The notes: generated by a model from the letters alone, not told the origin. A stretch of DNA of 64,000 nt from Oscillospiraceae bacterium (GCA_015063325.1 SVUK01000004.1:148665-212664); one strand, 5' to 3'; positions 14,421 through 46,931 are shown, numbered from the stretch's first letter. Made by a program: numbers and translations.

Positions 14421-15446
14421 ATGGGATTTGAAAACAAATTCGCAAGATTCATGCGCAATACCGGTCCGGCGCGCTTCTTTATTCCGATGGGATTGATTTT
14501 GATCATAGCCGGAATCCTTTTGATGGTGTTCAGCACCGGCGATTTCGTAGAAACAACGGCAAAAAATCAATCGGTTGAAGAGGTTCTTGTGACCGGTGAG
14601 ACAAATCAGACAGAATACGAGATTAAATTCGATTACGAAGTGGGCGGAAAGATCTACACCGGCAGTTTTCAAATGGTTAAAGAGTATAAGGTCGGCGACG
14701 AGATAACGATTTACTACGAGTCCTCTAATCCCGAGAAGATTACCAATACCAAAAACGGTAATCTGATCGGTTGGATCATGATCGGCGTCGGCGCGGTAGC
14801 AATCGTCGGGGGTATTTTTGCAACCGTCAAGGCATTCCAAAAGAGTAAAGCCCTGGACGAGGCGATTCCGGGAGGTAAACCGGATACAACCGCGTTCAAC
14901 AATTTCAAAACAGATGAAGGCGTTACCGAATATTATTTCCGATTCGACGGGCATTCGCTCAAACCGGGATATATTATTGAGGATGCAAACCGAAATGTCC
15001 TGTTTGAGGGCAAGATGACCAAGCAGGCGCTGGTCGGCGCGCGGACATACGAGTTCCACAATCACGTTACCGGGTCGGTTGCCGAGCATCAGATTGGACA
15101 CACGATAACGCAGAGCTACAACGACGAATTCTTTTCGAGAAAATCGTGGTTCAAAGTGGACGGAGAAAACGTTTGGGATCTTCTGCACGGAAAGGGTATT
15201 CGTCTGATCACCGACCTGCATAGCGAGCTCCCCTATCTCGTTTACAACGTCAGCAGAAATGGTAACCCGATTGCAATCGTTGAAACCAGCAGTTTGTACG
15301 TTCACGAGGATGAGGAAGCACAGCATAAGATCGTTCTTCCGACGGGGAATATGTACTATCGTTTTTGGACGAATTCGAGTGATTTTGAAACGCTGTTCCT
15401 GACCATTTTTGCCATTTCCGAAACCGAACAAACGGTAGTGGAATAA
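14421..15446 (+). CDS. DUF3592-type membrane protein
   Basis: RBS aaaggag upstream. TM helix, then a beta-rich segment, then a second TM helix, as in DUF3592. The longer antisense ORF 14391-15476 is rejected. Confidence 0.7.
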   Translation: MGFENKFARFMRNTGPARFFIPMGLILIIAGILLMVFSTGDFVETTAKNQSVEEVLVTGETNQTEYEIKFDYEVGGKIYTGSFQMVKEYKVGDEITIYYESSNPEKITNTKNGNLIGWIMIGVGAVAIVGGIFATVKAFQKSKALDEAIPGGKPDTTAFNNFKTDEGVTEYYFRFDGHSLKPGYIIEDANRNVLFEGKMTKQALVGARTYEFHNHVTGSVAEHQIGHTITQSYNDEFFSRKSWFKVDGENVWDLLHGKGIRLITDLHSELPYLVYNVSRNGNPIAIVETSSLYVHEDEEAQHKIVLPTGNMYYRFWTNSSDFETLFLTIFAISETEQTVVE

Positions 15447-15490
15447 GACAAAAGTCCGGAAGACAAAATACAGCAAACGCTCAAGAAAAT

Positions 15491-15533
15491 AAAAAACGCG
15501 CCAATGCAGAATTATTGCATCGGCGCGTTTTTT
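15491..15533 (+). terminator. rho-independent terminator
   Basis: cgcgccaatgca..tgcatcggcgcg stem followed by TTTTTT. Confidence 0.7.
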
Positions 15534-15580
15534 GAGGTTTGAAAATAACCAACAAAACCGGGTGAGATCGGATTAGAAGA

Positions 15581-15626
15581 AAAACTCGTCTGAACCTTGT
15601 GAGTTCAAACGAGTTCAACTTGGCGG
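15581..15626. repeat. left direct repeat (attL) of island 2
   Basis: aaaactcgtctgaaccttgtgagttcaaacgagttcaacttggcgg matches 26876-26921 at 42 of 46 positions. On the minus strand it folds as a 13-bp stem followed by UUUUU. Confidence 0.75.
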
Positions 15627-15709
15627 CACGTGTGCCACTCTCATTGAACTTTTGATCGAGTTTTAGCTTCTGTTTTCATTCCCTATATATCACTATTATT
15701 TTAAAAAAA

Positions 15710-15760
15710 TCTCTAAAATATAGAGAAAACCTTGACAAACGGAAGTTGTCTTGGTATAAT
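15710..15760 (+). promoter_or_regulatory. promoter of the defence operon with an upstream palindrome (possible operator)
   Basis: Palindrome tctcta-aaata-tagaga (15710-15726). TTGACA (15732-15737), 17-nt spacer, TATAAT (15755-15760). Confidence 0.6.
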
Positions 15761-15799
15761 AATATCAAACGCATCAACTTATTTTGTAAGGAGCAAAAA

Positions 15800-16009
15800 A
15801 TGGCAGTAAGTTATAAAAAACTATGGAAACTTCTAATTGATAAAGATATGAAAAAAGAGGATTTGCGCAAGGCAACTGGTATTACTACAACGGCAATGGC
15901 TAAACTCGGCAGGAACGAGAACGTTAATACTGAAATACTTGTAAAGATTTGCACGGCGCTTCAATGTGAACTAAATGATATTGTAGAAATTGTTGGCACA
16001 GAACAATGA
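15800..16009 (+). CDS. small HTH transcriptional regulator (69 aa), controller (C)-protein-like position
   Basis: KEDLRKATGITTTAMAKLGRNENV HTH motif. AAGGAG RBS upstream of ATG 15800. First gene of the R-M/Gabija-like operon. Confidence 0.75.
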   Translation: MAVSYKKLWKLLIDKDMKKEDLRKATGITTTAMAKLGRNENVNTEILVKICTALQCELNDIVEIVGTEQ

Positions 16010-16076
16010 ATATTATGAAACTGAGAATAGTTAATAGTATCGAAACAAAAGCAAATAAGTTATTAGGAGAAAAAAG

Positions 16077-17948
16077 ATGAACAGACACGACATCATAAAC
16101 AAAATTGGTGCTAAGTACCATGTTGGGAATACTGAAACAGGTGAATTCAGCTACGTTCAAGCATTGAAGTCTGTTGGAAAGGATATTAAGGATTATCAAA
16201 AAGCGACGACTGGAACAAAGCACCAATATTTGGATATTCGTTTTACTAACGATCGTTTGGTAATATTGGTAGAGTGCAAGAGTAAATTCAGCCGTTGGGA
16301 TAAGGCGAAGATACAGGGACAACTTCAAGACTATGTTAGATTTGAAAAAGCATACTCTGATAAAAAGATAGTTGCAATCTTGGCAGAAACCGAAGGCGAC
16401 GATGTTTGGGTTTGGTATGGTCAATCGGTTATTATTGACGACGAGCATAAAGTGTCGACTGAAACCATTATTCGCACTTTTGAAGAGTATGAGAACTTGT
16501 GTTTTGGCAAGGTAAACGATAAAATTAAAATTGTTGATTCTATCAAGCAATTAAACGAAAAATTGCATTCGGATGGTATTAACGAGAAATTGCGCAGTCA
16601 ATTTGTTGGAACGTGCCTTCTTGCATTGAAGAATGGCTTGGTTTATAAAGACATTAAAGCAACAATAGATCCCTCTACGGGCAAGGAGCTTTCTTCTGAA
16701 AAAGTTGTTTTAAAAAACATTAAAGATATTCTCGAAGGTCTGCTAACGAAGAGTGGGACGGTCAATATAAACAAAGCGAGTAAATTGACAATACTTAATA
16801 ATAAAGTTCTCGGCGACCAAGATGTTGAAAGTCTTACTTATGAAGAATTAAAAGAGATTTTAGAATATATCGATATAAATGTCGTTCCGTATATTAACGA
16901 TAAAAGTACTGCAGGGCAAGATTTATTAAATCTCTTCTTTACGACGTTCAATAAATATGTTGGTAAATCTGATAAGAATCAGGCTTTTACTCCTGACCAT
17001 ATTTGCGACTTTATGAGCAAAGCTGTTGGCGTAAACAAGAATTCTCGTGTTTTAGATCCTTGTTGCGGGAGTGGCGCTTTCTTGGTTAGAGCAATGACCG
17101 ATGCAATGGATGATTGCGATACGGAAGATGAAAGAGAAGACGTAAAGAAAGGACAGATTTTTGGCATTGAATATGAAGACGGCGCCTTTGGCTTGTCCTC
17201 TACAAATATGTTGATTCACGGCGATGGAAACTCTAACGTCATACAAGCATCTATGTTTGATAAGGCAAAGTGGATTTCGGATAACAACATTAATGTTGTT
17301 TTGATGAATCCCCCTTACAATGCCACTAAAAAGTGTTGTAATCCCGAATACACAAAGAATTGGAGTGCAAATCAGAAAGAAGACCCCTCTAAAGGCTTGC
17401 ATTTTGTAGAGTTTGTTGCAAGGCATGTTTCAAAACCGTGCAAAATAGCGGTTCTTCTTCCTATGCAGGCAGCTATAGGTAACAGTGGCGAAACAAAAGA
17501 GTTTAAGAAGAAAATGTTGGACAACTATACGCTTGAAGCCGTATTCTCTTTACCTAATGAAATGTTTTATCCCGGAGCGTCGGCGGTAGCGTGTTGTATG
17601 ATATTTGATTTGTCACAAAAACACGAAAGAGCCAACAAAGAAACATTCTTTGGTTATTATAAAGATGATAAATTTATTAAACGAAAAGGACTAGGTCGAG
17701 TTGAGAAAACTGACTCGGAAGGAAATAGTCTTTGGGTAAAAACAGAAGAACTATGGCTTGATCTTTATAGGAACAAAAAGGTTGTTCCCGGATTGTCTGT
17801 TATGCACAAGGTAACGTGGAAAGATGAGTGGCTTGCAGAAGCCTATATGGAAACAGACTATTCCACGCTGACAGAACAAGATTTTCAACAAACCATCAAC
17901 GATTATCTTTCATTTTTAGTAAAGGAAGGAACAGTTTATGAATCTTAA
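16077..17948 (+). CDS. Type IIB (BcgI-like) R-M subunit A: N-terminal PD-(D/E)xK-like domain fused to gamma-class N6-adenine methyltransferase
   Basis: D53-x12-E66-C-K68 (YLDIRFTNDRLVILVECK). Motif X QAFTPDHICDFM (aa 302-313), motif I VLDPCCGSGAF (aa 325-335), motif IV NPPY (aa 411-414). 623 aa. No hsdR gene in the island. Confidence 0.65.
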   Translation: MNRHDIINKIGAKYHVGNTETGEFSYVQALKSVGKDIKDYQKATTGTKHQYLDIRFTNDRLVILVECKSKFSRWDKAKIQGQLQDYVRFEKAYSDKKIVAILAETEGDDVWVWYGQSVIIDDEHKVSTETIIRTFEEYENLCFGKVNDKIKIVDSIKQLNEKLHSDGINEKLRSQFVGTCLLALKNGLVYKDIKATIDPSTGKELSSEKVVLKNIKDILEGLLTKSGTVNINKASKLTILNNKVLGDQDVESLTYEELKEILEYIDINVVPYINDKSTAGQDLLNLFFTTFNKYVGKSDKNQAFTPDHICDFMSKAVGVNKNSRVLDPCCGSGAFLVRAMTDAMDDCDTEDEREDVKKGQIFGIEYEDGAFGLSSTNMLIHGDGNSNVIQASMFDKAKWISDNNINVVLMNPPYNATKKCCNPEYTKNWSANQKEDPSKGLHFVEFVARHVSKPCKIAVLLPMQAAIGNSGETKEFKKKMLDNYTLEAVFSLPNEMFYPGASAVACCMIFDLSQKHERANKETFFGYYKDDKFIKRKGLGRVEKTDSEGNSLWVKTEELWLDLYRNKKVVPGLSVMHKVTWKDEWLAEAYMETDYSTLTEQDFQQTINDYLSFLVKEGTVYES

Positions 17949-18990
17949 CATTAGTGAATGGAAAGAATATCGGTTGGGCGATTTGTTTGAAATCAAAAAG
18001 GGTAAACGTCTAACTTCAGAAGATCAAACGGAAGGAACGACCCCATACATAGGAGCTATCGATTCCAATAATGGTGTATCTAATTATATTGGGCAAACAC
18101 CAATTCATGAAGGTAACACTATTTCTTTAAGTTACAATGGATCAGTTGGGCAGGCCTTCTATCAGCCGATTCCTTTTTGGGCGACTGATGATGTTAATGT
18201 CCTTTATTTCCGCGATAAAACCATATCCTTCAATCGCAACATGGCACTTTTTATCTGTACAATTCTTAAGCAAGAACAATACAGATACTGTTATGGTCGT
18301 AAATGGGTGCTTGATTCTATGAATGAAACGATGGTTAAGCTTCCTACAAAAGGTGATAAACCCGACTGGTCATATATGGAAAAATACATTTCATCTTTGA
18401 AAAGTCAAGCCGTTACATCCACAAAAAAAGTTGGGGATATTTCCTTTGATTACAAAAAGTGGAAATCTTTTAGTTTTGGTAGCTTAATAACAGAGGAAAA
18501 CATTTATAAAGCAAAAGCTTACAGCAAAACAGAGCTTGTAACAAGCGATGTTTGGAAAGAGGGTTTTATTCATTTTGTATCAAGAACGGAAGAAAATAAT
18601 AGTATCGACTGTTATGCAATGAAAAGCGATTTTTCTGATATTGAAGAAGGGAATGCGATTACTGTTGGAGATACCACATCCACTATAGCATATCAAGGCG
18701 AACCCTTTGTAAACGGAGATCACATCATTGTCATTCGAGCAGACTGGTTAAACAAGTATATTGGCATGTTCATTGTGAGTTTGTTGAGAAAAGAACGTTA
18801 TCGTTATTCATATGGTAGAGCATTTCTAATGGATTCTATCAAAAATACAAAATTGCTCCTTCCTGTTAAGATGGAAAATGGTAAACCCATTATTGATGAT
18901 AGTCATACGTTTTCTAATGAAGGCTATTTGCCGGATTGGGAATGGATGGAGAATTATATAAAATCGCTTCCTTTTAGTGATAGAATCTAA
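17938..18990 (+). CDS. R-M specificity subunit (HsdS/BcgIB-like, two target-recognition domains)
   Basis: Two repeated halves, each opening with a W-K-x-x-x-L/F-G-D/S-L element (WKEYRLGDLFEIKKG and WKSFSFGSLITEEN). Overlaps the upstream gene by 11 nt. Confidence 0.8.
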   Translation: MNLNISEWKEYRLGDLFEIKKGKRLTSEDQTEGTTPYIGAIDSNNGVSNYIGQTPIHEGNTISLSYNGSVGQAFYQPIPFWATDDVNVLYFRDKTISFNRNMALFICTILKQEQYRYCYGRKWVLDSMNETMVKLPTKGDKPDWSYMEKYISSLKSQAVTSTKKVGDISFDYKKWKSFSFGSLITEENIYKAKAYSKTELVTSDVWKEGFIHFVSRTEENNSIDCYAMKSDFSDIEEGNAITVGDTTSTIAYQGEPFVNGDHIIVIRADWLNKYIGMFIVSLLRKERYRYSYGRAFLMDSIKNTKLLLPVKMENGKPIIDDSHTFSNEGYLPDWEWMENYIKSLPFSDRI

Positions 18991-19002
18991 CTGGAGATTA
19001 TT

Positions 19003-21003
19003 ATGTATATTCAAAAGATAAGCATCAAAAATTATAGGAACTTCAATAATTTTGAAATGGAATTTCATGAAGGATTGAATGTTATTGTCGGTGCCAACAA
19101 TTCTGGGAAAACCGGATTGTTATATGCAATTAATTCCTTGAAAGAGCCAGCCATTACTATTGATGATTTTAATAAAAACAATTTAATCCATTTTAAGAGC
19201 TTATATATGGAGAATGCTCCCTCCATCGAGATAACATATTTTATTAAGCATTTAATTTCTATTGATGATACAACTGATGAGAGTATTATAAAATTGGTGC
19301 CATTTCTTGGTTTGAAAGAAATAAATGAAACTCGCATTCAAGATGGTGATAATACAAAGTATAATGTAACTGCCGTTATTAAATCAGTTTATTCTTTAGA
19401 TGTTAAATATCTTGAAGAGTATAGAAAAGCGGTTTCATCGCTCAATCAATATGATGATTATCTAATTGTATTAAATAGATTTGTTTCAGAACATTATGAT
19501 TGGAGCTATACAAATGGGGTTAGCGATTCAAAAGCGGCATCCAAAGATGCTCGTAATATTTTTGATATTCGATTTATTGGAGCCGAAAGGACCGCCGAAG
19601 AGGTTTCAAAGGAAGCAAAAAGAGAAATAGATGCTTTTTCAAAAATCGTTGAAAATGCTACTGAATTAGATAAATTTAAGAGCAAAACATCATCTGAACT
19701 CAAAGAATTATTAAGCCCTTCTCTCAATAAATTGAGTACATTATTCGAAAGTGAACAGAATGATATAGGTTTAAAGAAAGGTAATGTTTCAATCAGTTCT
19801 TCTATTAAAGCAAATTTTTCTATACCGGATTCATTTGTAACAGAAGTGAAGGATACAAAAACCGATTATATTGTGCCATTAAATCATAATGGTCTAGGTT
19901 ATAATAATCTAATTAACATATATATGCTTATTCGTCTTAACGAGATAAAAATGGGCAGAGATTTCCGAATTCTTTGTTTGGAAGAGCCGGAAGCGCATTT
20001 GCATCCCGCAATGCAATATAAACTTTTTAAGTATTTAAAGAAATTAGATGCAGATAATGAATTAAAACAGCAAATATTTGTTACTACGCATTCGAGCAAT
20101 ATCTCAGCGGTCGCAGGTTTAGATAATATGTTTATGATGGCTTATAACCGTCAATTGACACCGCAAGATTGTATGAATCAGAGCCTTGCATCGTTGTTCG
20201 TGGATAAAGAAGGTTCAACCGAAAAAAGCGAGGCAAAAAAGCATCTTTCTAAATTTCTAGACGTAACACGGTCTGATATGCTATTTGCAGATAAGGTTAT
20301 TTTAGTAGAAGGAATAGCTGAAAGGCTACTAATGCCTTATTTTATGGAAAAATGCGGATATGCATACGAAGATGAGCACGTATCGATTGTTGAAATAGGT
20401 GGTAAACATTTTGAACATTTTATTGAGTTATTCAATGGAAACGCTTTAAAAAAGAAGGTTTTATGCATCACTGATAATGACTTTAATTGGGTTTGTGAGG
20501 ATAAAACTAAATTTGATTCAAAAGCACACTATGAGGCAAATGTGCCGAGTCATATAGATAAAATCACAAGTAGATTCAATTTCGATGAATTCAAATTATG
20601 CACACAAAAGAATGGTGGTAGGACATTTGAAGATGAGCTGTTCTTGGCAAATTGTGATAACGAAGGAACTGCTGTTTTTCTTTTGAAAACTGTATTGCCC
20701 GAAACATTGTATTCATTTGTTGAAACTTATAAATTAGATATAGATCAATGGCGAAGTCATTTAGAGGAAATAGACGGAAGATCCAAATCTGTAATTAAAA
20801 ATTACTTAACTTATTATACCAATCGTAAGGATCAAGATGATTCGCTATCGAATTGGTATAAAAAATTATTTTTTGCTGAGTTGTTTTTGCATTATGCAAA
20901 TGGAAACAAAGGAGACATTGCTCTTGAGCTTTTAACAAATTTCACGGATAAAGATCTTGTAGTTCCAGCATATATAAGCGAGGGAATAGAATGGTTGAAA
21001 TAA
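19003..21003 (+). CDS. gajA: OLD-family ATPase/Toprim nuclease, Gabija GajA-like
   Basis: Walker A GANNSGKTG, LCLEEPEAHLHP, Toprim VILVEGIAERLLMP and LCITDNDFN. Followed by an overlapping UvrD-type helicase gene, the class 2 OLD arrangement. Confidence 0.75.
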   Translation: MYIQKISIKNYRNFNNFEMEFHEGLNVIVGANNSGKTGLLYAINSLKEPAITIDDFNKNNLIHFKSLYMENAPSIEITYFIKHLISIDDTTDESIIKLVPFLGLKEINETRIQDGDNTKYNVTAVIKSVYSLDVKYLEEYRKAVSSLNQYDDYLIVLNRFVSEHYDWSYTNGVSDSKAASKDARNIFDIRFIGAERTAEEVSKEAKREIDAFSKIVENATELDKFKSKTSSELKELLSPSLNKLSTLFESEQNDIGLKKGNVSISSSIKANFSIPDSFVTEVKDTKTDYIVPLNHNGLGYNNLINIYMLIRLNEIKMGRDFRILCLEEPEAHLHPAMQYKLFKYLKKLDADNELKQQIFVTTHSSNISAVAGLDNMFMMAYNRQLTPQDCMNQSLASLFVDKEGSTEKSEAKKHLSKFLDVTRSDMLFADKVILVEGIAERLLMPYFMEKCGYAYEDEHVSIVEIGGKHFEHFIELFNGNALKKKVLCITDNDFNWVCEDKTKFDSKAHYEANVPSHIDKITSRFNFDEFKLCTQKNGGRTFEDELFLANCDNEGTAVFLLKTVLPETLYSFVETYKLDIDQWRSHLEEIDGRSKSVIKNYLTYYTNRKDQDDSLSNWYKKLFFAELFLHYANGNKGDIALELLTNFTDKDLVVPAYISEGIEWLK

Positions 21004-22892
21004 CTTCAAGCGACATTTTGTCTATAGAGCAGATTAACAAAAACACAAAAGTGTTTGCAGGTCCAGGTGCCGGCAAAACTCATTTTTTAGTGGAGAATAT
21101 TAAAAACATAATAGCTAAAAATGATATTATTGTAAATAGTCACTCTCGCAAACTATTGTGTATTACATATACAAACGCTGCGGTCGATGAAATTAAGAAA
21201 CGATTAGATAGATTCACTGACTATGCGGATATATACACAATCCATGGGTTTATTATTGATAACATTATTAAACCATTTCAAGATGATATGAAACAAATTA
21301 TAAAAAATGATTTCGGGATTGAGGTGAATTCAAAAGGCGCGATTACATCCCAAATAGAGGGACTTGGCATATTACATGGAGTTGATCGCGAGGAAATCTT
21401 TTCATTCATAAAAATGGAGTTGTCTTTGCCTGCAAATGAGCCAATTGCATATAGTAAAAAAATAATGGGTGAGATCGAAGTTGACAATTCATCTTTTATC
21501 AATTCATTAAAGAGTAAAGATAAACCAATTTGCCAAATATGTTCTTCATCAAAAATACAGGAAGAACATGTGCTACCAATAAAAAAGTATATATGGTCAA
21601 TCGTTAAAAAGCTAACGCATAACGAAATACTATACTTCGGTTATAGAATAATTGAACAAAACCCTCTTGCTTTATACTATTTGCGTGTAAAATATCCGTA
21701 TGTATTTGTTGACGAGTTTCAAGATACAAATCCCTTACAGACATTGTTGATTAAAAAAATGTGTCAAGATTCTTCGAAAGTATGGGTTGTTGGAGATGTA
21801 GCGCAATCAATATATAGCTTTCAGGGTGCCAAGCCATCTGATTTTAGTGCATTTAAGATAGATGACGATGATTCAGATTGTTATATTAGAGGCAATAGAC
21901 GATCATCTTCAAATATTGTAAACTTTTGTAATTTCATTAGACAAAAAGATCAAACGGTTATTCAAACCAGTACTAATGGAAGTGTTAACAACAAAAAAAT
22001 TCACTTTTTAATGGGAAAAAGTGATAATACTAACACTACAATTGCTTCTGTTATCAAAGATGGGGGCGTAGTGTTAACTCGAACTTGGGCAACAGCATTT
22101 GATTATATTATTGGAATCGATGATGGTCAAGCAAGTTTGTTAAAGAAAATATATAGTAGTTACTATAACACTACTATAAGCATAAGGGATGAAATAGTCG
22201 AATTAAATAATGTGCTTTGGGTACGAGCATTTAAGTTCATTTTCAATTTGTGGGATAGTTATAAAAATGGATCAGTTGTAGACTTCATTAATGCACTAAA
22301 ACTATATGGGAACGTTCAATATCAAAGCATTGATGTAAACTCGCTATTATTAATTAATTCGCTTTTGCAAAAAGTTTTCCGTGATTGCGAGAGCACTACG
22401 ACTTTTAATGTCATAAATAATTTCAACGAGGAAATGAAAAGCTCTCAATATGATTCACTAAAAAAGATCCTTATAGGCGAATACCATGAGATACAGATTT
22501 TCGATGAACTTGATAAAGAAGACTTAACAGCGGCTATATCTAACTTGAATTGGGAAACTTCGTATAAATTATTTAAGGAAGTGTTTGCAGAAAACAGCAA
22601 ATATTTAACAGTTCATCAAGCAAAGGGATTGGAGTGGAAGAAAATAGTAGTTGGAGTTGTTCCGGGAAGAAATGATAAAACTACGTTAACAAAGTTTTAT
22701 TCTTCACCAGATATAATGGGAGAAGCGCCTGAAAAAGAATTTGCTAGGATTTACTATGTTGCATGTAGTCGTGCGATAGAGGATTTATATATTCATATTC
22801 CTAGTGGATGTGAACGCGAAACTATCGAGAAAAGCTTAAATGATTTTATCTCAAAAACATCCAATAGCATTGACTATGAGTTTATTGAGTAG
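20991..22892 (+). CDS. gajB: UvrD/PcrA/Rep-type SF1 helicase, Gabija GajB-like
   Basis: FAGPGAGKTHFL (motif I), VFVDEFQDTNPLQ (motif II), LTVHQAKGLEWKK, YVACSRA. Overlaps gajA by 13 nt. Confidence 0.75.
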   Translation: MVEITSSDILSIEQINKNTKVFAGPGAGKTHFLVENIKNIIAKNDIIVNSHSRKLLCITYTNAAVDEIKKRLDRFTDYADIYTIHGFIIDNIIKPFQDDMKQIIKNDFGIEVNSKGAITSQIEGLGILHGVDREEIFSFIKMELSLPANEPIAYSKKIMGEIEVDNSSFINSLKSKDKPICQICSSSKIQEEHVLPIKKYIWSIVKKLTHNEILYFGYRIIEQNPLALYYLRVKYPYVFVDEFQDTNPLQTLLIKKMCQDSSKVWVVGDVAQSIYSFQGAKPSDFSAFKIDDDDSDCYIRGNRRSSSNIVNFCNFIRQKDQTVIQTSTNGSVNNKKIHFLMGKSDNTNTTIASVIKDGGVVLTRTWATAFDYIIGIDDGQASLLKKIYSSYYNTTISIRDEIVELNNVLWVRAFKFIFNLWDSYKNGSVVDFINALKLYGNVQYQSIDVNSLLLINSLLQKVFRDCESTTTFNVINNFNEEMKSSQYDSLKKILIGEYHEIQIFDELDKEDLTAAISNLNWETSYKLFKEVFAENSKYLTVHQAKGLEWKKIVVGVVPGRNDKTTLTKFYSSPDIMGEAPEKEFARIYYVACSRAIEDLYIHIPSGCERETIEKSLNDFISKTSNSIDYEFIE

Positions 22893-23091
22893 TAACCTCG
22901 TAATCTAAAATCGGGTTTCCCGATTGTTCCCGCGCGCTACGCTCGGCGTGGCGCGCGCCCTCGAAAGCGCAACCATGTTGCACTTTCCTTTACCTGCTTA
23001 GGCATCGGAGATAGCCAAAATAATGGTGCAAAATACGAGTCGGAAAAATCTTTTTAAATATGACTGAAATTGTCAGGGATAGTACGGTATA

Positions 23092-24132
23092 TTGAGGTTA
23101 TGGGATAAGTTAGCGTATCACTACAACAAAAAGAAAATTCCCGCCGAGAACGCGGGCAAATATCTGTATTATTATCCTTGCGCCGCCGAGAACGCAAACG
23201 CTCGGATTGACGGGCACGGCTTTATCGTCATAGAAGTCACCGAAAAGGAGTGGGAAGCACTGATCGAGTTGGATCGGATCGACTACAACAATGAGCATAA
23301 ATACGTCCGCCACACTATGCCCATCCCCAACGCAGACGAAGACCAACTTACTGTCAAACAACAAGAACAACTGCATTCGGGTGAAACAGATATTTCTACA
23401 GCAACAGCGGAAACATTCGATAAGCGGCAATGCTTTTCAAAACTATCCGACAACGAAAAGCGAATCATTGCTTTGCTTGACGAAGGAAGCACGCAAAAGG
23501 AAGTCGCAAAAGAACTCGGCGTAACGCAAGGTTATGTTTCAATGGTCAAGAAGCAAGCCAAGTTCAATTTGGACTATTCGGAGTATCGTTCCGCGGTCAA
23601 ATCGAACGACGGCGAGTATATCTGGAAATGCTGGGATCAGTTTTCACGGAAACTTGCGATGCCTTTGTTTCTTGACGTCGAATTGGAATACGTTATCAGT
23701 CGTTTGCACCCCGACGACATCGCCCACTTTATGCACTGGTATTACAGTTTCGGTGAGTTCATACGCTATTCGTTGACCTATTACATATACAACGAAGATA
23801 AGATAAAGGACGAAATTACGGAATACTTATATAAAGCGAGCGATCGGGAACTTACTTGGTTTATGAAAAACTATTCCAACCAACCGGCACTCGTTCAAAT
23901 TGTATATATTCGCTTGATTGACGAATTTGAGCGCCGAAGACAAAGCGGACTTAAAAGTTCAAGTAAAGCAATCGACGGGTTACTTACGGCGGTGGAAAAA
24001 CTTGCCGAGAAAGTAAATATGCCGTCCGAGCAATTCTATGCCGAAAGAATTTATCCCATCGTGGCGACGATCCGCAACAAACGCAAAAGGCAATTTTATC
24101 TCTTTTACACCGGCAAAAAACTGACCAAATAA
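23092..24132 (+). CDS. sigma-70 region-4-like HTH protein of the mobile-element backbone
   Basis: LSDNEKRIIALLDEGSTQKEVAKELGVTQGYVSMVKKQA resembles a sigma r4/LuxR-type HTH. TTG start. The rest of the protein is unassigned. Confidence 0.6.
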   Translation: MRLWDKLAYHYNKKKIPAENAGKYLYYYPCAAENANARIDGHGFIVIEVTEKEWEALIELDRIDYNNEHKYVRHTMPIPNADEDQLTVKQQEQLHSGETDISTATAETFDKRQCFSKLSDNEKRIIALLDEGSTQKEVAKELGVTQGYVSMVKKQAKFNLDYSEYRSAVKSNDGEYIWKCWDQFSRKLAMPLFLDVELEYVISRLHPDDIAHFMHWYYSFGEFIRYSLTYYIYNEDKIKDEITEYLYKASDRELTWFMKNYSNQPALVQIVYIRLIDEFERRRQSGLKSSSKAIDGLLTAVEKLAEKVNMPSEQFYAERIYPIVATIRNKRKRQFYLFYTGKKLTK

Positions 24133-24203
24133 ATTTTTTCAAAAATTTTTGAAATCACTAATATTTTCTCCCTTCTCGTGGCTTATAAGTAGAAGGGCGT
24201 ATT

Positions 24204-24238
24204 GAGAACGACGATCGAACAGGTCGCCGTTCTTTTTT
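24204..24238 (+). terminator. rho-independent terminator
   Basis: gaacgacga..gtcgccgttc stem (one mismatch) followed by TTTTTTAT. Confidence 0.55.
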
Positions 24239-24263
24239 ATGCCTTCAAAAAACCAGAAAGGAG

Positions 24264-25049
24264 GTGAAAAATATCAGTTGGAATTATGAAGGTAAAAAGG
24301 ATTTGATTCGGGATAAACACGCAACCATTTCGGTCATTACGTTTCGGAAAGATAAACTGTCCGCACAGGACGGTTATCTCGAAGAAGTCGAACAGACTTA
24401 TTCCGTCGCGTGGCTGAAGCAAAAACGCGCCTGTTTTGAACAAGAATGGGCACGCGTGAAAACCGAACTGAACGCCACGTTTAACAGTCGAGGAAAGAAC
24501 GTTGTATTAGAGTGTTTGCAGTTCGGCGGCAACCACGAGTTTTGGGACGATTTTCCCGACGAATACGAAATTACGACATATTTCAGGAAGTGCTACGCTT
24601 TTGCGATTAAGATTATCGGTTACAAGCAAACTGACAAGAACATTGTCTGCGCGCTTATCGTTACCGAGCCGAACAGGCGTAACCTTTTCGTGTATTACCT
24701 GCCTATAACGAACAGTTGGCAACGGAAAGTATGCGGCGAGAAGCGATCGGAACGCGGAAACATTTTGCAACTACGCGATATAAACGATGAGCCGATATAC
24801 CGAAACGAACAAAGCGATGAACGCCCTCTTTTGTGTCATACGGAATTTTGGAAACAACGCGGCGGCGAAACGTCTTATTCCGAACTGCAAGAGAGATTTT
24901 ACACCGAGATCTCGAAACGGTACGGAGCCGAGCGCGGCGAAAGTCATTCAAGACTGAAATACACGACGAACGAACAGATCCGTCGGCATTTCCGTTATGA
25001 CGGCGACAGTGACGACGTAATGCCGCCGACAAAAGGGATCTGGGTTTAA
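24264..25049 (+). CDS. Mob/Pre (MobV)-family homologue lacking the catalytic histidine motifs
   Basis: Colinear with the island-1 relaxase: KNVVLEC..EFWDDFP..NIVCALIVTEPNRRNLFVYYLPIT aligns with KDAVLMC..EFFSDKFP..NIISAVVHMDETTPHLHLNLIPIS, and LQERFYTEISKRYGAERG aligns with LQTELHERVGKKFGLERG. HxDE..PHxH is replaced. GTG start abuts the RBS, so the start is uncertain. Confidence 0.6.
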   Translation: MKNISWNYEGKKDLIRDKHATISVITFRKDKLSAQDGYLEEVEQTYSVAWLKQKRACFEQEWARVKTELNATFNSRGKNVVLECLQFGGNHEFWDDFPDEYEITTYFRKCYAFAIKIIGYKQTDKNIVCALIVTEPNRRNLFVYYLPITNSWQRKVCGEKRSERGNILQLRDINDEPIYRNEQSDERPLLCHTEFWKQRGGETSYSELQERFYTEISKRYGAERGESHSRLKYTTNEQIRRHFRYDGDSDDVMPPTKGIWV

Positions 25050-25192
25050 CTGACGCCTGTTCCCTTTACTTTTAAGTCAGCAAACATATATATCAAAATA
25101 ACAAGGAGGAAAATTGTGGTTTATGGAGAGAGCACATAGTATCCATCAGGAAAGAGAACATTGTATCCGCACAAATAAAAAATTAAGGAGAA

Positions 25193-25399
25193 TTGAAACG
25201 ACAGGAATCAAAACATCAAAATCGGGTTGAAATCAATTTATTGACCCACAAAAAACAAGAATCACCACTATTTTTAGACGACGAAACTCTGGACGTAAGC
25301 GCGACCGTGTTTGCGAATATGATGTTGGACTTCGTTAGAGCCAACGGTATGGAAAAACTTACGCCGAGCAACGTTTTTAAGAAGGAGAAACAGGAATGA
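25193..25399 (+). CDS. small hypothetical protein translationally coupled to the recombinase (start uncertain)
   Basis: The ORF stop overlaps the recombinase ATG (ATGA). The TTG start at 25193 has poor RBS spacing, and an internal ATG (..MMLDFVRANG..) is possible. Confidence 0.4.
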   Translation: MKRQESKHQNRVEINLLTHKKQESPLFLDDETLDVSATVFANMMLDFVRANGMEKLTPSNVFKKEKQE

Positions 25400-26937
25400 A
25401 GAAAGCAGTTATTTACGCGAGATTCAGTTCGCACAGTCAGACCGAACAGTCTATCGAAGGACAATTACGCGAATGCTATGATTTTGCAAAGCGAAGCGAC
25501 ATTACGATCGTCGGAGAATACATAGACCGCGCGCTTACCGGCACGTCGGACAAGCGCCCGCAATTTCTTAAAATGATAGACGAGAGTAAGAAAAAGAATT
25601 TCGAGTACGTTTTAGTCTATCAATTAGACCGTTTCGCCCGAAACCGTTACGACAGCGCGAACTACAAAGCCAAGTTAAAGAAAAACGGCGTGAGAGTTTT
25701 GTCTGCAAAAGAAAACATAACTGACGACGCGAGCGGAATTCTCGTCGAAGGAATGCTTGAAAGTATGGCGGAGTATTACTCCGCCGAACTCTCGCAAAAA
25801 GTCAAGCGCGGCATCAAAGAAAGCCTTATCAAAGGCAATTTCATCGGCGGTTACGGTCTATTGGGCTACGATACCGTGGACAAGAAGTGGACGGTCAATC
25901 CATTGGAAGCGGCGGTCGTAAAAGATATTTTCACAAGATACCGAAGCGGAGAAAAAGCCAAAGATATCATCAACCGCTTGAACTCTTTGGGTATCAAAAC
26001 CAAATGCGGCAAAAAGTTTACGATGAGTCAATTTGCCCGCATTATCCGCAACGAAAAATATACAGGTATCGTGAGAACAGGCGAAACCGTCTATGCAAAC
26101 GTTATTCCGCCCATCGTGGACGAAAAACTATTCAGGGAGTGTAATATAATTATGGATTCGCATAAGCATAAACAAAGAAAGAACTATAACGAACAGCCGT
26201 ATATATTGAGCGGCAAACTCTTTTGCGGTTATTGTGATTCGGCAATCACCGCCGAAACTGGAACAAGCAAAACCGGCAAAGTTTACCATTATTACAAGTG
26301 CTACGGCAAGAAGATGAAAACAACCGATTGTAATAAAAAGCCCGTCAGTCAGGAGTTTATAGAATCGCTTGTATTTGAAGCGACGATAAAATACGTTCTT
26401 ACGCCGAAAACCATTGAAAAACTCGCAAAACTTGTCACCGAAAAGTTTAATTCGGAAATCGCCAAGCCTACCGCTTTACTTTCGCTTGAAAAGGAATTAA
26501 AGGAAATAAACAAATCTATAGACGGCATTATGGCGGCGATAGAAAACGGTATTTTTACAAAAACGACCAAAGACAGATTACTTAGATTAGAAGCCGAGCA
26601 ATCCGAACTCGAAGCCAAAATATCCGTGGAAGAGTCAAGAAGCGTAAAGCCGCTCGAAGTGAACGAAGTCAAGAAGTTTATGACTTACTTTGCCTATATG
26701 AAGTTTGAAAAAGGCGAAGAAAAAAACGAGTTCATAAACTCGTTCATAAACCGTGTGATTTTATACGACGACAAGGTTATTATCCTTTACAATTCCAACG
26801 ATAGAGAAGTCAAAAGGCTCACGAAAAAGCAATTAAGGGAAGCGGAAGCCGCCGAAAACTTGGAAGAAATAAAAGAAAACTCGCCTGAACCTTGTGAGTT
26901 CAAACGAGTTGCTCTTGGCGGAGAAGGAGAGATTTGA
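25396..26937 (+). CDS. large serine recombinase
   Basis: AVIYARFSSHSQTEQSIEGQ catalytic-Ser N-terminus, zinc ribbon CGYCDS..YYKCYGKK, coiled coil. Paralogous to 11332-12834. The last ~20 codons lie in the right direct repeat, and the last 22 nt overlap tRNA-Ser on the opposite strand. Confidence 0.9.
   Translation: MKKAVIYARFSSHSQTEQSIEGQLRECYDFAKRSDITIVGEYIDRALTGTSDKRPQFLKMIDESKKKNFEYVLVYQLDRFARNRYDSANYKAKLKKNGVRVLSAKENITDDASGILVEGMLESMAEYYSAELSQKVKRGIKESLIKGNFIGGYGLLGYDTVDKKWTVNPLEAAVVKDIFTRYRSGEKAKDIINRLNSLGIKTKCGKKFTMSQFARIIRNEKYTGIVRTGETVYANVIPPIVDEKLFRECNIIMDSHKHKQRKNYNEQPYILSGKLFCGYCDSAITAETGTSKTGKVYHYYKCYGKKMKTTDCNKKPVSQEFIESLVFEATIKYVLTPKTIEKLAKLVTEKFNSEIAKPTALLSLEKELKEINKSIDGIMAAIENGIFTKTTKDRLLRLEAEQSELEAKISVEESRSVKPLEVNEVKKFMTYFAYMKFEKGEEKNEFINSFINRVILYDDKVIILYNSNDREVKRLTKKQLREAEAAENLEEIKENSPEPCEFKRVALGGEGEI
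26876..26921. repeat. right direct repeat (attR) of island 2
   Basis: aaaactcgcctgaaccttgtgagttcaaacgagttgctcttggcgg. Includes the last 6 nt (CCGCCA) of tRNA-Ser and its terminator hairpin. Confidence 0.75.
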
Positions 26938-27006
26938 ACTCTCGCGCCGGTTGCCCGGCCTACACCCTTAGCAGGGGCGCCTCTTCGGCCTCTTGAGTAC
27001 TTCTCC
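26916..27006 (-). tRNA. tRNA-Ser (anticodon GCT), long variable arm, CCA encoded
   Basis: Minus strand reads GGAGAAGTACTCAAGAGGCCGAAGAGGCGCCCCTGCTAAGGGTGTAGGCCGGGCAACCGGCGCGAGAGTTCAAATCTCTCCTTCTCCGCCA. Acceptor GGAGAAG/CTTCTCC, anticodon loop CT-GCT-AA, T-arm GAGAG-TTCAAAT-CTCTC. Confidence 0.9.
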
Positions 27007-27054
27007 GTGTACTCATCCGCAAAATGCCGTTTGCAGTGTCTTGCGGACTTTTTT

Positions 27055-27083
27055 ATTATACCGTTCTTTTTTTGATTTGTCAA
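27055..27083 (-). promoter_or_regulatory. sigma-70-type promoter of tRNA-Ser
   Basis: Minus strand: TTGACA (27083-27078), 17-nt spacer, TATAAT (27060-27055). Confidence 0.6.
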
Positions 27084-27146
27084 GAGGTTTTTTATTTTTT
27101 TACCTTGCGGTTTTCTTTTTTCTTTTTGATTTTGTTTCTGCTTTGC

Positions 27147-27175
27147 TTGACAAGCTCTTGCTTTCATGCTACAAT
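27147..27175 (+). promoter_or_regulatory. sigma-70-type promoter of the ABC transporter gene
   Basis: TTGACA (27147-27152), 17-nt spacer, TACAAT (27170-27175). Confidence 0.55.
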
Positions 27176-27211
27176 AGAAATGTATTTTTATTCAGATAGA
27201 AAGGCTTTTCT

Positions 27212-28933
27212 ATGTTAAAACGGTTTATTCGCTATTATCGTCCGCATCGGCGCATCTTTTGGATGGATATGTTTGCCGCCTTGATGGTTGCCGGTATCGG
27301 CGTTTTGTATCCCATGGTTACGCGAACCATGCTGAATAACTATATTCCCAACAAGGAATATAAAATGATTGCCATTATGGGTATGATTCTGCTGGGGACC
27401 TATCTTGCCCGTATGGGCTGCAACTTTTTCATGCAGTATTACGGGCACGTTATGGGCGTTCGGATGCAAAAACAGATGCGCAATGATCTGTTCCATCATT
27501 TGGAAACCCTGCCATACAGTTTTTATGACAACAACGAAACCGGAAAACTGATGTCTCGCTTGACCAACGATTTGTTCGATGTGAGTGAGCTTGCACATCA
27601 CGGACCGGAAAATTTGATTATTTCCACCATTTCCATTGTCGTTTCATTCGTCTATCTTTGCACCATCAACTGGGTGCTGACGTTAATTATTTTCGCCTGC
27701 ACGCCTTTTTTGCTGACCATTTCGCTGCTTCTGCGGCGCAAGATGCGTTCGGCATTTAAACGCAGCCGCGAGTCGGTTGCCGAGATCAATGCGTCAACCG
27801 AGGGCAGTATTTCAGGCATTCGTGTGACCAAAGCTTTTAACAATGCCGAAAAGGAAGAGGAGAAGTTTGAGGCGAGCAACAAAAAATTTGTAGCCGCGCG
27901 TACCGACGCTTACCGTGCTATGGGGCAGTTCCATGCAGGCACAACGTTTATCACCGATATTTTCAACGTGGTTATTTTGGTTGCCGGCGGCTTTTTCCTT
28001 TACGGTGGCAAAATCGGACTTGGCGACTATTCTGCGTTCGTCGTTTCCATTCATTTGTTTATCACGCCTGTGATGACATTGATTAATTTTATGGAACAGT
28101 ATCAGGATGGCGTGACCGGATTCGAGCGGTTTGTTGAGATTATGGATACCCCATCCGAGGTCGATTCCGAGGGCGCGGTGGATATGGGACGCGCCGAAGG
28201 GAAAATTGAGTTCTGCAACGTCAGTTATGCCTATGACGGTGAGCACGACGTACTGGACGGAATCAATTTGAAGGTGGACGCCGGAAAGAAATTTGCGCTG
28301 GTCGGCGCTTCCGGAGGCGGAAAAACAACCATTTGCCATTTAATTCCGCATTTTTACGATGTGACGAACGGAGAGATCAAGATCGACGATCGGGAAATCC
28401 ATTCCATCACGCTCCATTCGCTTCGACAAAATATCGGTATCGTTCAGCAGGATGTGTATTTGTTCAATTCCACCATTCGGGAAAATATTCTTTACGGTCG
28501 GCTGGATGCTACCGATGAAGAGGTCTACGAGGCGGCAAAAAGAGCCAACATTCACGATTACATCCTCTCGCTTCCAAACGGCTACGAAACGAAGATCGGC
28601 GAGCGCGGCGTCAAACTTTCGGGCGGACAGAAACAGCGTCTTTCCATTGCTCGCGTATTTCTCAAAGATCCCCCCATTCTGATTTTGGACGAGGCAACCA
28701 GCGCACTGGATAATGCCACCGAAATTCAGATTCAAAAGGCTTTGGACGAGCTTTGCCGCGGCAGAACGACCATCGTGGTGGCGCATCGCCTTTCCACCGT
28801 TAAGAACGCCGATGAAATCGCCGTAATTGAGAAGGGAAAGATCACCGAGCAGGGAACGCACGAGGAGCTGGTTGCCAAGGGCGGCGTTTATGCAAACCTC
28901 TATCGGATGCAGTTCCGCGATTCGGATCTTTGA
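27212..28933 (+). CDS. ABC exporter, fused permease/ATP-binding protein
   Basis: Six-TM N-terminal half. Walker A LVGASGGGKTT, signature LSGGQKQRLSIAR, Walker B ILILDEATSALD. Confidence 0.9.
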   Translation: MLKRFIRYYRPHRRIFWMDMFAALMVAGIGVLYPMVTRTMLNNYIPNKEYKMIAIMGMILLGTYLARMGCNFFMQYYGHVMGVRMQKQMRNDLFHHLETLPYSFYDNNETGKLMSRLTNDLFDVSELAHHGPENLIISTISIVVSFVYLCTINWVLTLIIFACTPFLLTISLLLRRKMRSAFKRSRESVAEINASTEGSISGIRVTKAFNNAEKEEEKFEASNKKFVAARTDAYRAMGQFHAGTTFITDIFNVVILVAGGFFLYGGKIGLGDYSAFVVSIHLFITPVMTLINFMEQYQDGVTGFERFVEIMDTPSEVDSEGAVDMGRAEGKIEFCNVSYAYDGEHDVLDGINLKVDAGKKFALVGASGGGKTTICHLIPHFYDVTNGEIKIDDREIHSITLHSLRQNIGIVQQDVYLFNSTIRENILYGRLDATDEEVYEAAKRANIHDYILSLPNGYETKIGERGVKLSGGQKQRLSIARVFLKDPPILILDEATSALDNATEIQIQKALDELCRGRTTIVVAHRLSTVKNADEIAVIEKGKITEQGTHEELVAKGGVYANLYRMQFRDSDL

Positions 28934-43123: not shown

Positions 43124-44882
43124 AATCATCAAACGGCTTGCTGGCTGTGTGCGCGAATACAAAGGCTTGTCGATCGCAACCCTCCTTTTAATGGTGGGCG
43201 AAGCGGCAATCGAGAGTGTGATTCCGTTTATCACGGGCGAGTACCTCATCAACGTTATTCAAAAGAGCAACGGCAACGTGGAAATGCCGTACATCATCAA
43301 AATCGGAATTCTCATGGCGGTCATGGCGCTCTTTTCGCTGGCATTCGGCGGATTTGCCGGCTTGACAGCGGCAAAAGCCGCCGCAGGTTTTGCAAAAAAT
43401 TTGCGACACGACCTGTTCGGAAAGGTGCAGGAATTTACCTTCCATAATATCGACAAATTTTCGTCTGCCTCGTTGGTGACGCGTATGACGAGCGACGTTA
43501 CCAACGTGCGCATGTCCTACATGATGCTGATCCGCATAGCAATACGCAGCCCCCTGATGCTTATTTTTTCCATCATTATGGCGGCAAAGGCGTGCGGATG
43601 GATGTCGCTGACCTTTGTTGTGGTCATTCCGATTTTGGTATTTGGCTTTTTGATCATTTTCAGGCGTGCCATGCCGGCGTTCCGCCGCGTGTTCAAAAAG
43701 TACGACAAATTGAATGAATCCATCGAGGAAAACGTGCGCGGAATGCGTGTTGTCAAAGGATTTTCGCGCGAGGAGTACGAGAAGAAAAAGTTTGCAGCCG
43801 CGTCCGATGCGATTTGCGAGGACTTTACCAAAGCCGAGCGGATCGTAGCATGGAACACGCCGCTGATGAATTTTTGTATGTATTTCAATATGATCTTTAC
43901 GCTGATTGTCGGTTCGTGGCTTGCCATTGCAAAACCACAGACGGGCGTGAATGTCGGACAGCTTTCCATGATGTTGAATTACGGAATGCAAGTACTCATG
44001 TCTTTGATGATGTTCTCCATGATTTTTGTTATGGTCACCATTTCGGTGGAAAGTGCCAAGCGTATCTGCGAGGTGCTGGAGGAGGAACCGGATATGAAAA
44101 CGCCGGAGGATCCTGCAACCAAGGTTGCCGATGGGTCGATCGAGTTTGAAAATGTATCCTTTAAATACGCCGCCGATGCACAGGTATTTGCACTTTCGGA
44201 TATCAACCTTAAAATCCCATCCGGCGCAACGGTCGGTATTTTGGGAGGAACGGGATCGAGTAAATCCTCGCTTGTGCAACTGATTCCCCGACTGTATGAC
44301 GCTTCCGAAGGGGTAGTCCGTGTAGGCGGCAAGGATGTGCGCGATTACGATACCGCCATCCTGCGCGATTCGGTTGCTATGGTGTTGCAAAAGAATCTGT
44401 TGTTCTCGGGTACGATCAAGGAAAATCTGCGTTGGGGCAACGAAAACGCCACCGATGAGGAATTGATCGAAGCCTGCAAGCTTGCCCAAGCGGATAGCTT
44501 TGTGCAGTCCTTCCCCGAAGGGTACGATACCCATATCGAGCAGGGAGGCACCAACGTTTCGGGCGGACAGAAACAGCGCCTTTGCATTGCACGCGCACTA
44601 CTCAAAAAGCCGAAGATTCTGATTTTGGACGATTCCACCAGCGCGGTGGATACGAAAACCGATGCGCTCATCCGCGCCGGTTTCCGCTCCTATATTCCTG
44701 CCACAACCAAAATCATCATTGCCCAGCGCATAGCCTCGGTGCAGGACGCCGATATGATCGTGGTAATGGAAAACGGCAGAATCGCTTCCGTCGGAACACA
44801 TGAAGAATTGATGAAGAGCAGTGAGATCTACCGTGAGATTTATGAACAACAAACCAACGGAAACGGAGGGGATGAACAATGA
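43116..44882 (+). CDS. ABC exporter permease/ATPase (heterodimer partner 1)
   Basis: TM domain plus ILGGTGSSKSS, VSGGQKQRLCIAR and ILILDDSTSAVD. Overlaps the marR stop. Confidence 0.9.
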   Translation: MGKIIKRLAGCVREYKGLSIATLLLMVGEAAIESVIPFITGEYLINVIQKSNGNVEMPYIIKIGILMAVMALFSLAFGGFAGLTAAKAAAGFAKNLRHDLFGKVQEFTFHNIDKFSSASLVTRMTSDVTNVRMSYMMLIRIAIRSPLMLIFSIIMAAKACGWMSLTFVVVIPILVFGFLIIFRRAMPAFRRVFKKYDKLNESIEENVRGMRVVKGFSREEYEKKKFAAASDAICEDFTKAERIVAWNTPLMNFCMYFNMIFTLIVGSWLAIAKPQTGVNVGQLSMMLNYGMQVLMSLMMFSMIFVMVTISVESAKRICEVLEEEPDMKTPEDPATKVADGSIEFENVSFKYAADAQVFALSDINLKIPSGATVGILGGTGSSKSSLVQLIPRLYDASEGVVRVGGKDVRDYDTAILRDSVAMVLQKNLLFSGTIKENLRWGNENATDEELIEACKLAQADSFVQSFPEGYDTHIEQGGTNVSGGQKQRLCIARALLKKPKILILDDSTSAVDTKTDALIRAGFRSYIPATTKIIIAQRIASVQDADMIVVMENGRIASVGTHEELMKSSEIYREIYEQQTNGNGGDEQ

Positions 44883-46858: not shown

Positions 46859-46931
46859 AAAACTTGTTTGGACCGGAATAAAAAACTTGTTTGGACCGGA
46901 ATAAAAAACTTGTTTGGACCGGAACAAAAAA
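46852..46931. repeat. 23-bp tandem direct repeat, about 3.5 copies
   Basis: ggaataaaaaacttgtttggacc occurs three times (46852-46874, 46875-46897, 46898-46920), followed by a partial ggaacaaaaaa. The first copy contains the stop codon of the ABC gene. Confidence 0.85.

Follow-up and report, generated by a model that had tools for sequence, protein, structure and literature searches.

We analysed a 64,000-nucleotide stretch from an Oscillospiraceae bacterium (GCA_015063325.1 SVUK01000004.1:148665-212664), hereafter the window, in which a small helix-turn-helix (HTH) regulator gene is followed by the two genes of a BcgI-like restriction-modification (RM) system and by a Gabija gene pair, gajA and gajB. 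The locus probably represents two independent, known defence systems that a mobile element carries in a single operon headed by a regulator gene, with Gabija as a tenant acquired by cassette exchange and not as an obligate partner of the RM system. The first module would be a conserved unit comprising an operator palindrome, a consensus promoter, the HTH regulator, a BcgI-like RM subunit (RM-A) and a specificity subunit (S), and the second would be the gajA-gajB cassette, lodged in a variable cargo slot that extends from the S stop codon to a conserved hairpin or terminator. The RM enzyme would methylate host sites and excise unmethylated sites from incoming DNA. In Bacillus cereus Gabija, GajA nicks DNA and GajB senses ends and hydrolyses nucleotides, and the pair in the window would provide an autonomous second layer through the same activities.

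Comparison with related loci (designated by L numbers) reveals sharp borders on both sides of the Gabija pair. In L095, RM-A and S are 98% and 96% identical to their counterparts in the window, but S is followed by a 940-aa Ppl-like gene instead of gajAB. DNA homology to both L095 and L084 ends at position 18991, a single nucleotide beyond the stop codon of S. Homology to L084, which has the 940-aa gene in between, restarts at 22905, 13 nt past the gajB stop codon. The restart point, CTAAAATCGGGTTTCC(C/A)GATTGTTC, is common to L084, where it comes right after the different tenant. Since the break falls at the end of S and the homology resumes just past gajB, gajAB forms an exchangeable cassette (Table 1). 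RM-A proteins that are 97-98% identical and yet have different tenants were found both for the window and L095 and for L146 and L154.

The two modules also appear to have different histories. Between the window and L146, identity is 78% for RM-A, 56% for GajA, and 51% for GajB, and between the window and L177 it is 54%, 68%, and 59%, respectively. Thus, according to the identity matrices, RM-A places the window with L146, whereas both GajA and GajB place it with L177, and it follows from this conflict that Gabija cassettes have moved between RM modules. An ancient vertical co-inheritance of RM and Gabija was rejected on account of the same incongruent matrices. RM-A also varies far less than GajA: its clusters at 80-100% identity number in the hundreds.

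We catalogued the gene after S in an RM-A-anchored set of 75 loci, which gave 46 lineages when grouped at 97% RM-A identity plus the same tenant. Gabija was present in four lineages with the subfamily found in the window and in another four with the PDLC00063/00113 subfamily, Ppl-like ATPases (940 or 772 aa) in four, a single OLD/AriA-like nuclease in three, and PDC-M49A, PDC-S06, PDC-S60, NsnA, a mad6/Stk2-like kinase, and a HEC-06-like protein in one lineage each. No same-strand tenant was present in 11 lineages, and the rest have proteins without a clear match at this position. More than half of the same-strand tenants are ABC-ATPase-type defences. Most tenants start 3-45 nt past S with their own ribosome-binding site, and others start 185-360 nt past it. 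The occurrence of PDC and HEC families from the study of Payne et al. (10.1101/2024.01.29.577857) fits the idea that the slot is a site for defence cargo, and the pairing of RM with Gabija would arise by cassette exchange at such a hot spot.

Several tenants of other loci were recorded in their own right. The 940-aa (L084:11059-13881) and 772-aa (L131:4166-6484) proteins match Ppl over ~130 C-terminal residues only (PADLOC, 3.9e-19 and 3.3e-23) and give faint ABC-ATPase signals (SMC_N/AAA_21), and they probably form an undescribed Ppl-related family. Tenants located directly after S in L133 (10499-11632, 377 aa) and L157 (3579-5703, 317 and 392 aa) have no PADLOC or Pfam match, and further same-strand tenants follow S in L163 (2927-4885, 254 and 395 aa), L108 (10978-13690, 226, 314, and 363 aa), and L166 (10694-11708, 121 and 231 aa); by their position, the tenants of these five loci are candidate new defence genes. 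Stacked cargo was observed in L155 (7870-14052), in which RM-A, S, gajA, and gajB precede a further tenant, a Ppl-like gene from the 772-aa family that elsewhere lies directly 3' of S. In L121 (4804-6792), a gajA gene of the PDLC00063 subfamily appears to be split into open reading frames (ORFs) of 368 and 266 aa while gajB is kept, which may reflect either a decaying cassette or an assembly error.

A reciprocal, GajA-anchored scan of one genome per species yielded 80 loci (GajA identity 26-67%), and in none of the 80 did a BcgI-like RM-A and S adjoin gajAB. In all related loci whose contig reaches that far, gajB lies directly 3' of gajA. Among these 80 loci, 30 same-strand genes directly 5' of gajA were annotated, 13 of which encode restriction or modification proteins (type I HsdR, type IIG fusions, type III Res and Mod, and type II restriction endonuclease) at gaps of 12 to ~470 nt, many of them within 12-59 nt. 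Other upstream genes include SoFic, AbiEii, AbiLii, TmtA, TIR-NLR, an LmuB-like ATPase, an HNH protein, and PDC candidates. Metagenomic GajA clusters with 67-68% identity stand behind an HTH/RM-A/S module whose RM-A is 54% identical to that of the window, at a gap of 8 nt. The gene of a 77% identical GajA relative follows a Schlafen/AlbA_2 ATPase gene, a 63% relative stands alone, and a 61% relative (L201) lies 168 nt behind a HinfI-like type II RM pair. The stand-alone gajAB of L198 has no RM system and an upstream region of ~1 kb. An IMG/VR scan with the GajA alignment gave 15 loci, one of them above 43% identity, which were excluded from the statistics.

Four observations weigh against the two-system reading given above. 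Tight linkage of Gabija, at 8-24 nt, recurs in three divergent RM-A lineages (100%, 78%, and 54% identical to that of the window), which could reflect selection for pairing and not neutral exchange of cassettes, and Gabija is the commonest single tenant, being found in 8 of the 35 lineages that have a same-strand tenant. In addition, the 3' end of S contains two 9/12 promoter-like matches (18936-18964 and 18977-19004), so that an internal promoter is conceivable, and the predicted nuclease fold of RM-A was not confirmed by structure prediction (pLDDT, the predicted local distance difference test, 59; no significant fold match).

The first two of these points bear on a specific coupling of the modules, which had been proposed in the original prediction. 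In the form considered here, Gabija would fire once an anti-restriction protein has disabled the RM enzyme, or the ends left by type IIB excision would activate GajB, and selection would keep the operon together. The recurrence of the gene order in divergent RM-A lineages despite recombination and the prevalence of ABC-ATPase-type tenants are consistent with it, some ABC-ATPase-class systems are reportedly triggered by anti-restriction proteins (10.1101/2024.01.29.577857, PMC12255303), and GajB reportedly senses DNA termini (10.1101/2023.05.02.539174). However, a specific partnership is not supported, because the same RM-A and S occur with another tenant in L095, gajAB occurs with other partners (unrelated RM types and non-RM defence genes) or with none (L198), and the two groupings conflict. 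The pairing is also absent from the 80 species genomes, and gajAB is placed equally tightly behind type I, IIG, and III restriction genes. Gabija, moreover, gives defence by itself in heterologous hosts. We therefore consider specific coupling unlikely. The check suggested in the original prediction, whether BcgI-like A/B genes directly precede gajA in other genomes, came out positive in a subset: the same gene order with 8-24 nt between S and gajA recurs in RM lineages with 78% and 54% identity to that of the window. In the GajA-anchored genomes it came out negative.

A broader version, in which the BcgI-like RM system together with whatever tenant occupies its 3' slot (in most cases an ABC-ATPase/OLD-type nuclease, most commonly Gabija) forms a selected two-layer unit, would have the tenant fire upon a block by a DNA-mimic anti-restriction protein or have GajB switched on by excision ends. 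Such a unit would explain why Gabija is found so close behind three divergent RM lineages despite recombination, but we hold it to be quite improbable. Combining a methylation-based first barrier with a second one of the ABC-ATPase type may bring a general, non-specific gain, an idea that has already been published. In the original prediction, coupling of this kind was not known to be described; the layered or back-up concept is in fact present in the literature (10.1101/2024.01.29.577857, PMC12255303), where Payne et al., under the term 'guilt by embedding', proposed Gabija as a back-up firing when Ocr inhibits the methylation-based system. Two autonomous systems brought together by cassette exchange thus remain the reading that we favour.

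With regard to the architecture of the operon, RM-A and S overlap by 11 nt, S and gajA are separated by 12 nt, and gajA and gajB overlap by 13 nt in the ORF map. These junctions, the 69-aa HTH gene with the four large genes behind it, the TTGACA-17-TATAAT promoter with its upstream palindrome, and the appearance of the first strong hairpins only past gajB are all exactly as had been described in the original prediction. In four sister elements (L001, L084, L095, and L096), the palindrome, the -35 box, and the extended -10 box are kept while the spacer and leader diverge, a pattern that fits an operator/promoter unit under the control of the HTH protein. The layout is that of C-protein systems, with a small same-strand HTH gene just upstream of the RM genes and a putative palindromic operator at its promoter. 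The HTH protein, whose identity across sister elements is 97-100%, also matches an NCBIfam VanU-like model (1.7e-24, under the cutoff of that model). A terminator scan detected no convincing + strand terminator within the operon, and the hairpins 3' of gajB have a minimum free energy of -48.4 kcal/mol (z = -5.6). The five genes had been described as similarly AT-rich. All of them are indeed AT-rich in comparison with the remaining element (GC content 0.42-0.47) and the chromosome (0.46-0.51), but GajA (0.318) and GajB (0.323) are distinctly more so than RM-A (0.372) and S (0.354), the value for the HTH gene being 0.357.

The spacing of the genes makes a single HTH-led transcript that includes gajAB the most likely arrangement, in agreement with the co-transcription proposed earlier. 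Co-transcription is likely because only 12 nt lie upstream of gajA, no terminator intervenes, and stand-alone relatives have long upstream regions. On the strength of the 12-nt spacing, gajAB would be transcribed from the RM promoter and would hence share the HTH regulator. Alternatively, the modules might be adjacent without being co-transcribed, with gajAB having a promoter of its own that is concealed within the last part of S and independent of the HTH protein and the RM promoter. The two promoter-like matches mentioned above fit this view, as does the TATA-rich sequence created in all lineages by conserved NYIK codons at the 3' end of S, and the tenants that start farther from S have room for promoters of their own. 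On the other hand, weak matches of this sort are no commoner than in shuffled sequence (36 observed in 15000-23500 versus 33.7 +/- 6.2, i.e., no excess), the S-gajA junction lacks a terminator, and its gap leaves room for a ribosome-binding site only, which differs clearly from the long upstream region of gajAB in L198. An independent gajAB promoter therefore seems to have only a slim chance, and transcription from the RM promoter is preferred.

The assignment of the RM module as a BcgI-like type IIB/IIG RM subunit with its S subunit, already made in the original prediction, is borne out by Pfam and PADLOC profiles. RM-A matches the PADLOC profile REase_MTase_IIG (PDLC03608, 'Type IIG restriction enzyme-methyltransferase') over residues 61-618 (1.7e-54) and Pfam N6_Mtase (2.4e-33). 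Among 37 homologues, down to 26% identity, the invariant residues are E66 and K68 of the N-terminal ExK, D327/G331 of motif I, and N411-P412-P413. Among solved structures, the RM-A family profile matches HsdM proteins of type I systems and, in the methyltransferase region only, RM.BsaXI, an enzyme of type IIB (3e-27), and the nearest relative of its methyltransferase domain is type I HsdM. S matches Pfam Methylase_S in two stretches (3.7e-30) and PADLOC Specificity_II (PDLC03591, 'Type II specificity subunit', 3.3e-38), and in every lineage its C-terminus reads ...NYIKSLPxxDRI. No Pfam domain was found in RM-A residues 1-290. An AlphaFold (AF2) model of these 290 residues, made with an input alignment of 80-95% identical homologues, gave a mean pLDDT of 59 and no Foldseek match in the PDB at E <= 0.001, with BsaXI ranked third (probability 0.44). 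Matches to the mad2, mad5, and mad3 genes of MADS were rejected as an identity for this module, since their scores are far under those of the RM and GajA profiles and under the NCBIfam cutoffs.

The affinity to HsdM, together with the frequency of ATPase-nucleases among slot tenants, might suggest one hybrid four-protein system, in which GajA and GajB would serve as an ATP-driven nuclease-helicase arm replacing HsdR on a type I-like methyltransferase-specificity core. However, RM-A retains the invariant ExK motif, which corresponds to that stretch of BcgI's PD...ExK motif containing Glu53, a residue essential for cleavage (PMC3592470), RM-A and S occur without any tenant in 11 lineages, and GajA and GajB are paired in every locus whatever their neighbours. 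We regard such a hybrid as barely conceivable and retain the two-system interpretation. The 633-aa helicase was likewise rejected as an HsdR-like motor of the RM system, as its partner is GajA throughout the related loci, whether RM is present or absent.

The Gabija identity of the second module was confirmed by the PADLOC check proposed earlier, in which both proteins gave full-length profile matches. GajA aligns over residues 1-665 with the 687-position profile PDLC00069 (4.4e-100) and contains AAA_15 (residues 1-367, 2.7e-38) and OLD-like_TOPRIM (427-493, 3.3e-20) domains in Pfam. Its invariant residues in 14 homologues include Walker A G35-K36-T37, Walker B/D-loop L326-E327-E328-P329-E330, and the Toprim residues E436 and D491/D493 (DxD). 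In a phmmer search of the PDB, the top matches are B. cereus GajA chains, at ~1e-12 only and over residues 256-495. GajB matches PDLC00119 over its full length (5.2e-94) and Pfam UvrD-helicase (4.7e-37), has helicase motifs I, II, and VI (GPGAGKT, DEFQD, and VACSRA) in its translation, and is equally close to GajB and UvrD among solved structures (~1e-16). Both proteins do exceed the canonical lengths, as had been pointed out, but this is not unusual: more than 100 GajA homologues have 645-690 aa, their partner GajB proteins have 631-646 aa, and the best PADLOC profiles for GajA and GajB are 687 and 565 positions long. To judge from these homologues, the apparently oversized lengths are normal within this subfamily of Gabija.

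Judging from its sequence, the operon is cargo of an integrative element of ~11.3 kb that encodes a large serine recombinase and has a tRNA-Ser gene, at its 3' end, as insertion site. The element carries a terminal recombinase gene, flanking repeats, and a defined target, and the unit 15699-26922 (11.2 kb) occurs at 91% identity in the metagenomic contig L001 at a different genomic site; because the whole unit recurs in a different neighbourhood, the carrier can be recognized as a small integrative element with the operon as its cargo. The 46-nt repeats consist of the last 6 nt of tRNA-Ser(GCU) plus the terminator downstream of it, and a terminator-like hairpin on the - strand (15616-15582) lies inside the left copy. 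In an Rfam search (E <= 0.1) over 15000-27500, the tRNA was the sole match. The serine recombinase ORF runs through the right repeat, so that its C-terminal ~20 residues would differ after excision.

Table 1. Features of the defence operon and of its carrier element, with positions counted from the first nucleotide of the window
Feature	Position	Strand	Evidence or remark
Left 46-nt direct repeat, copy of tRNA-Ser 3' end and terminator	15581-15626	.	91% identical to right copy
Palindrome TCTCTAAAATATAGAGA, putative operator of HTH regulator	15710-15726	+	read from sequence; abuts -35
Sigma-70 promoter TTGACA-17-(TG)TATAAT	15732-15760	+	sole 12/12 match within 15000-23500
Cro/C1-type HTH regulator, C-protein-like, 69 aa from ATG	15800-16009	+	Pfam HTH_26 6.8e-18
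RM-A, 623 aa, putative N-terminal PD...ExK-type nuclease region and gamma-class N6-adenine methyltransferase, BcgI-A-like	16077-17948	+	PADLOC, Pfam
S (specificity) subunit, 350 aa, two target-recognition domains, BcgI-B-like	17938-18990	+	Pfam, PADLOC
Exchangeable cargo cassette with gajA-gajB	18992-22904	+	homology breaks versus L095, L084
GajA, 666 aa, ABC ATPase and OLD-type Toprim nuclease	19003-21003	+	PADLOC, Pfam
GajB, 633 aa, UvrD-like superfamily 1 helicase	20991-22892	+	PADLOC, Pfam
Three stable hairpins, probable operon terminator, conserved right flank of cassette	22905-22990	+	hairpins ~22909-22987
Backbone gene, 346 aa, sigma-70 region-4-like HTH	23092-24132	+	Pfam Sigma70_r4 1.4e-07; 86% identical in L001
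Backbone gene, 261 aa, faint MobV relaxase similarity	24264-25049	+	NCBIfam MobV 0.0022, far under cutoff; in L001, 78% identical across part of the gene
Large serine recombinase, 513 aa	25396-26937	+	Pfam Resolvase 3.2e-29, Recombinase 6.5e-17, Zn_ribbon_recom 4.9e-11
Right 46-nt direct repeat	26876-26921	.	11,295 nt from left copy; ends at tRNA-Ser(GCU) CCA end
tRNA-Ser(GCU), integration target	26916-27006	-	ARAGORN; Rfam tRNA 49.2 bits

A second cargo slot, located just left of the HTH promoter (15675-15699), is empty in the window. In other copies it is occupied on the opposite strand, by Abi_2, DUF3800, and a 213-aa gene in L001 (4125-6622) and by SIR2_2 and a 512-aa gene in L084-L088 (L084:4644-7539). 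In L001 (16438-19481), the serine recombinase gene of the element convergently overlaps a second one (550 aa), suggesting an insertion beside or into another element. Repeats were also seen elsewhere in the window. A 23-nt unit (GTTTGGACCGGAATAAAAAACTT) is present in four tandem copies, 93-95% identical, at 46843-46931, within an ORF-dense region or at its end. A 133-nt segment occurs three times (28580-28712, 44520-44652, and 46511-46643) with 61-77% identity, and its copies probably derive from paralogous genes (ORFs of 573, 588, and 659 aa).

The locus offers a clean natural example of defence stacking, in which swappable autonomous cassettes would come to use the promoter of an RM system, and the HTH/operator/promoter unit is a candidate common regulator of two defence layers. 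The slot, delimited by the S stop codon after ...NYIKSLPxxDRI and by the conserved hairpin, may provide an inexpensive way of finding new defence genes; in related contigs, several of its tenants are without a PADLOC or Pfam match.

Both systems are ordinary members of their families, and the way in which they are arranged exemplifies a known phenomenon and reveals no new kind of immune mechanism; the use of a two-gene type IIB RM system as host module and a slot with base-pair-sharp borders may be new aspects. As in Gabija of B. cereus VD045, an ABC-ATPase/Toprim OLD nuclease gene precedes and overlaps a UvrD-like helicase gene, but the pair in the window belongs to a distant subfamily with proteins ~90 and ~140 aa longer, and it lies 12 nt behind the S gene of an RM system and has no upstream region of its own. 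The RM module resembles BcgI and BsaXI in having two genes, an A subunit with a putative N-terminal PD...ExK-type motif and a gamma N6-adenine methyltransferase and a B or S subunit with two recognition domains, and no separate motor subunit. It differs from them in being preceded by a C-protein-like HTH gene, and its match to BsaXI is confined to the methyltransferase region.

Embedded defence systems, such as those surveyed by Payne et al. or the DarTG2 system embedded in a type I RM locus whose promoter is controlled by the small repressor RptR (Zhang et al., PMC12255303), likewise combine an RM locus with a second autonomous system, probably under a common promoter and a small repressor, and their tenants are also diverse and often ABC-ATPase based. 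However, the host in the window is a two-gene type IIB RM system, a class outside the survey of Payne et al., gajAB is not nested in the sense of that study but comes behind S, the final gene of the RM system, and is followed by the element backbone, and the slot has sharp borders, with the S stop codon on one side and a conserved hairpin on the other. The P2/P4 hot spots, in which interchangeable anti-phage cassettes are carried by mobile elements (Rousset et al. 2022, PMC9122126), share with the present locus the conserved flanks in a syntenic mobile element around swappable anti-phage cassettes, whereas the carrier described here belongs to gut Clostridia and is a small integrative element with a serine recombinase, and its hot spot is flanked on the left by an RM gene's 3' end.

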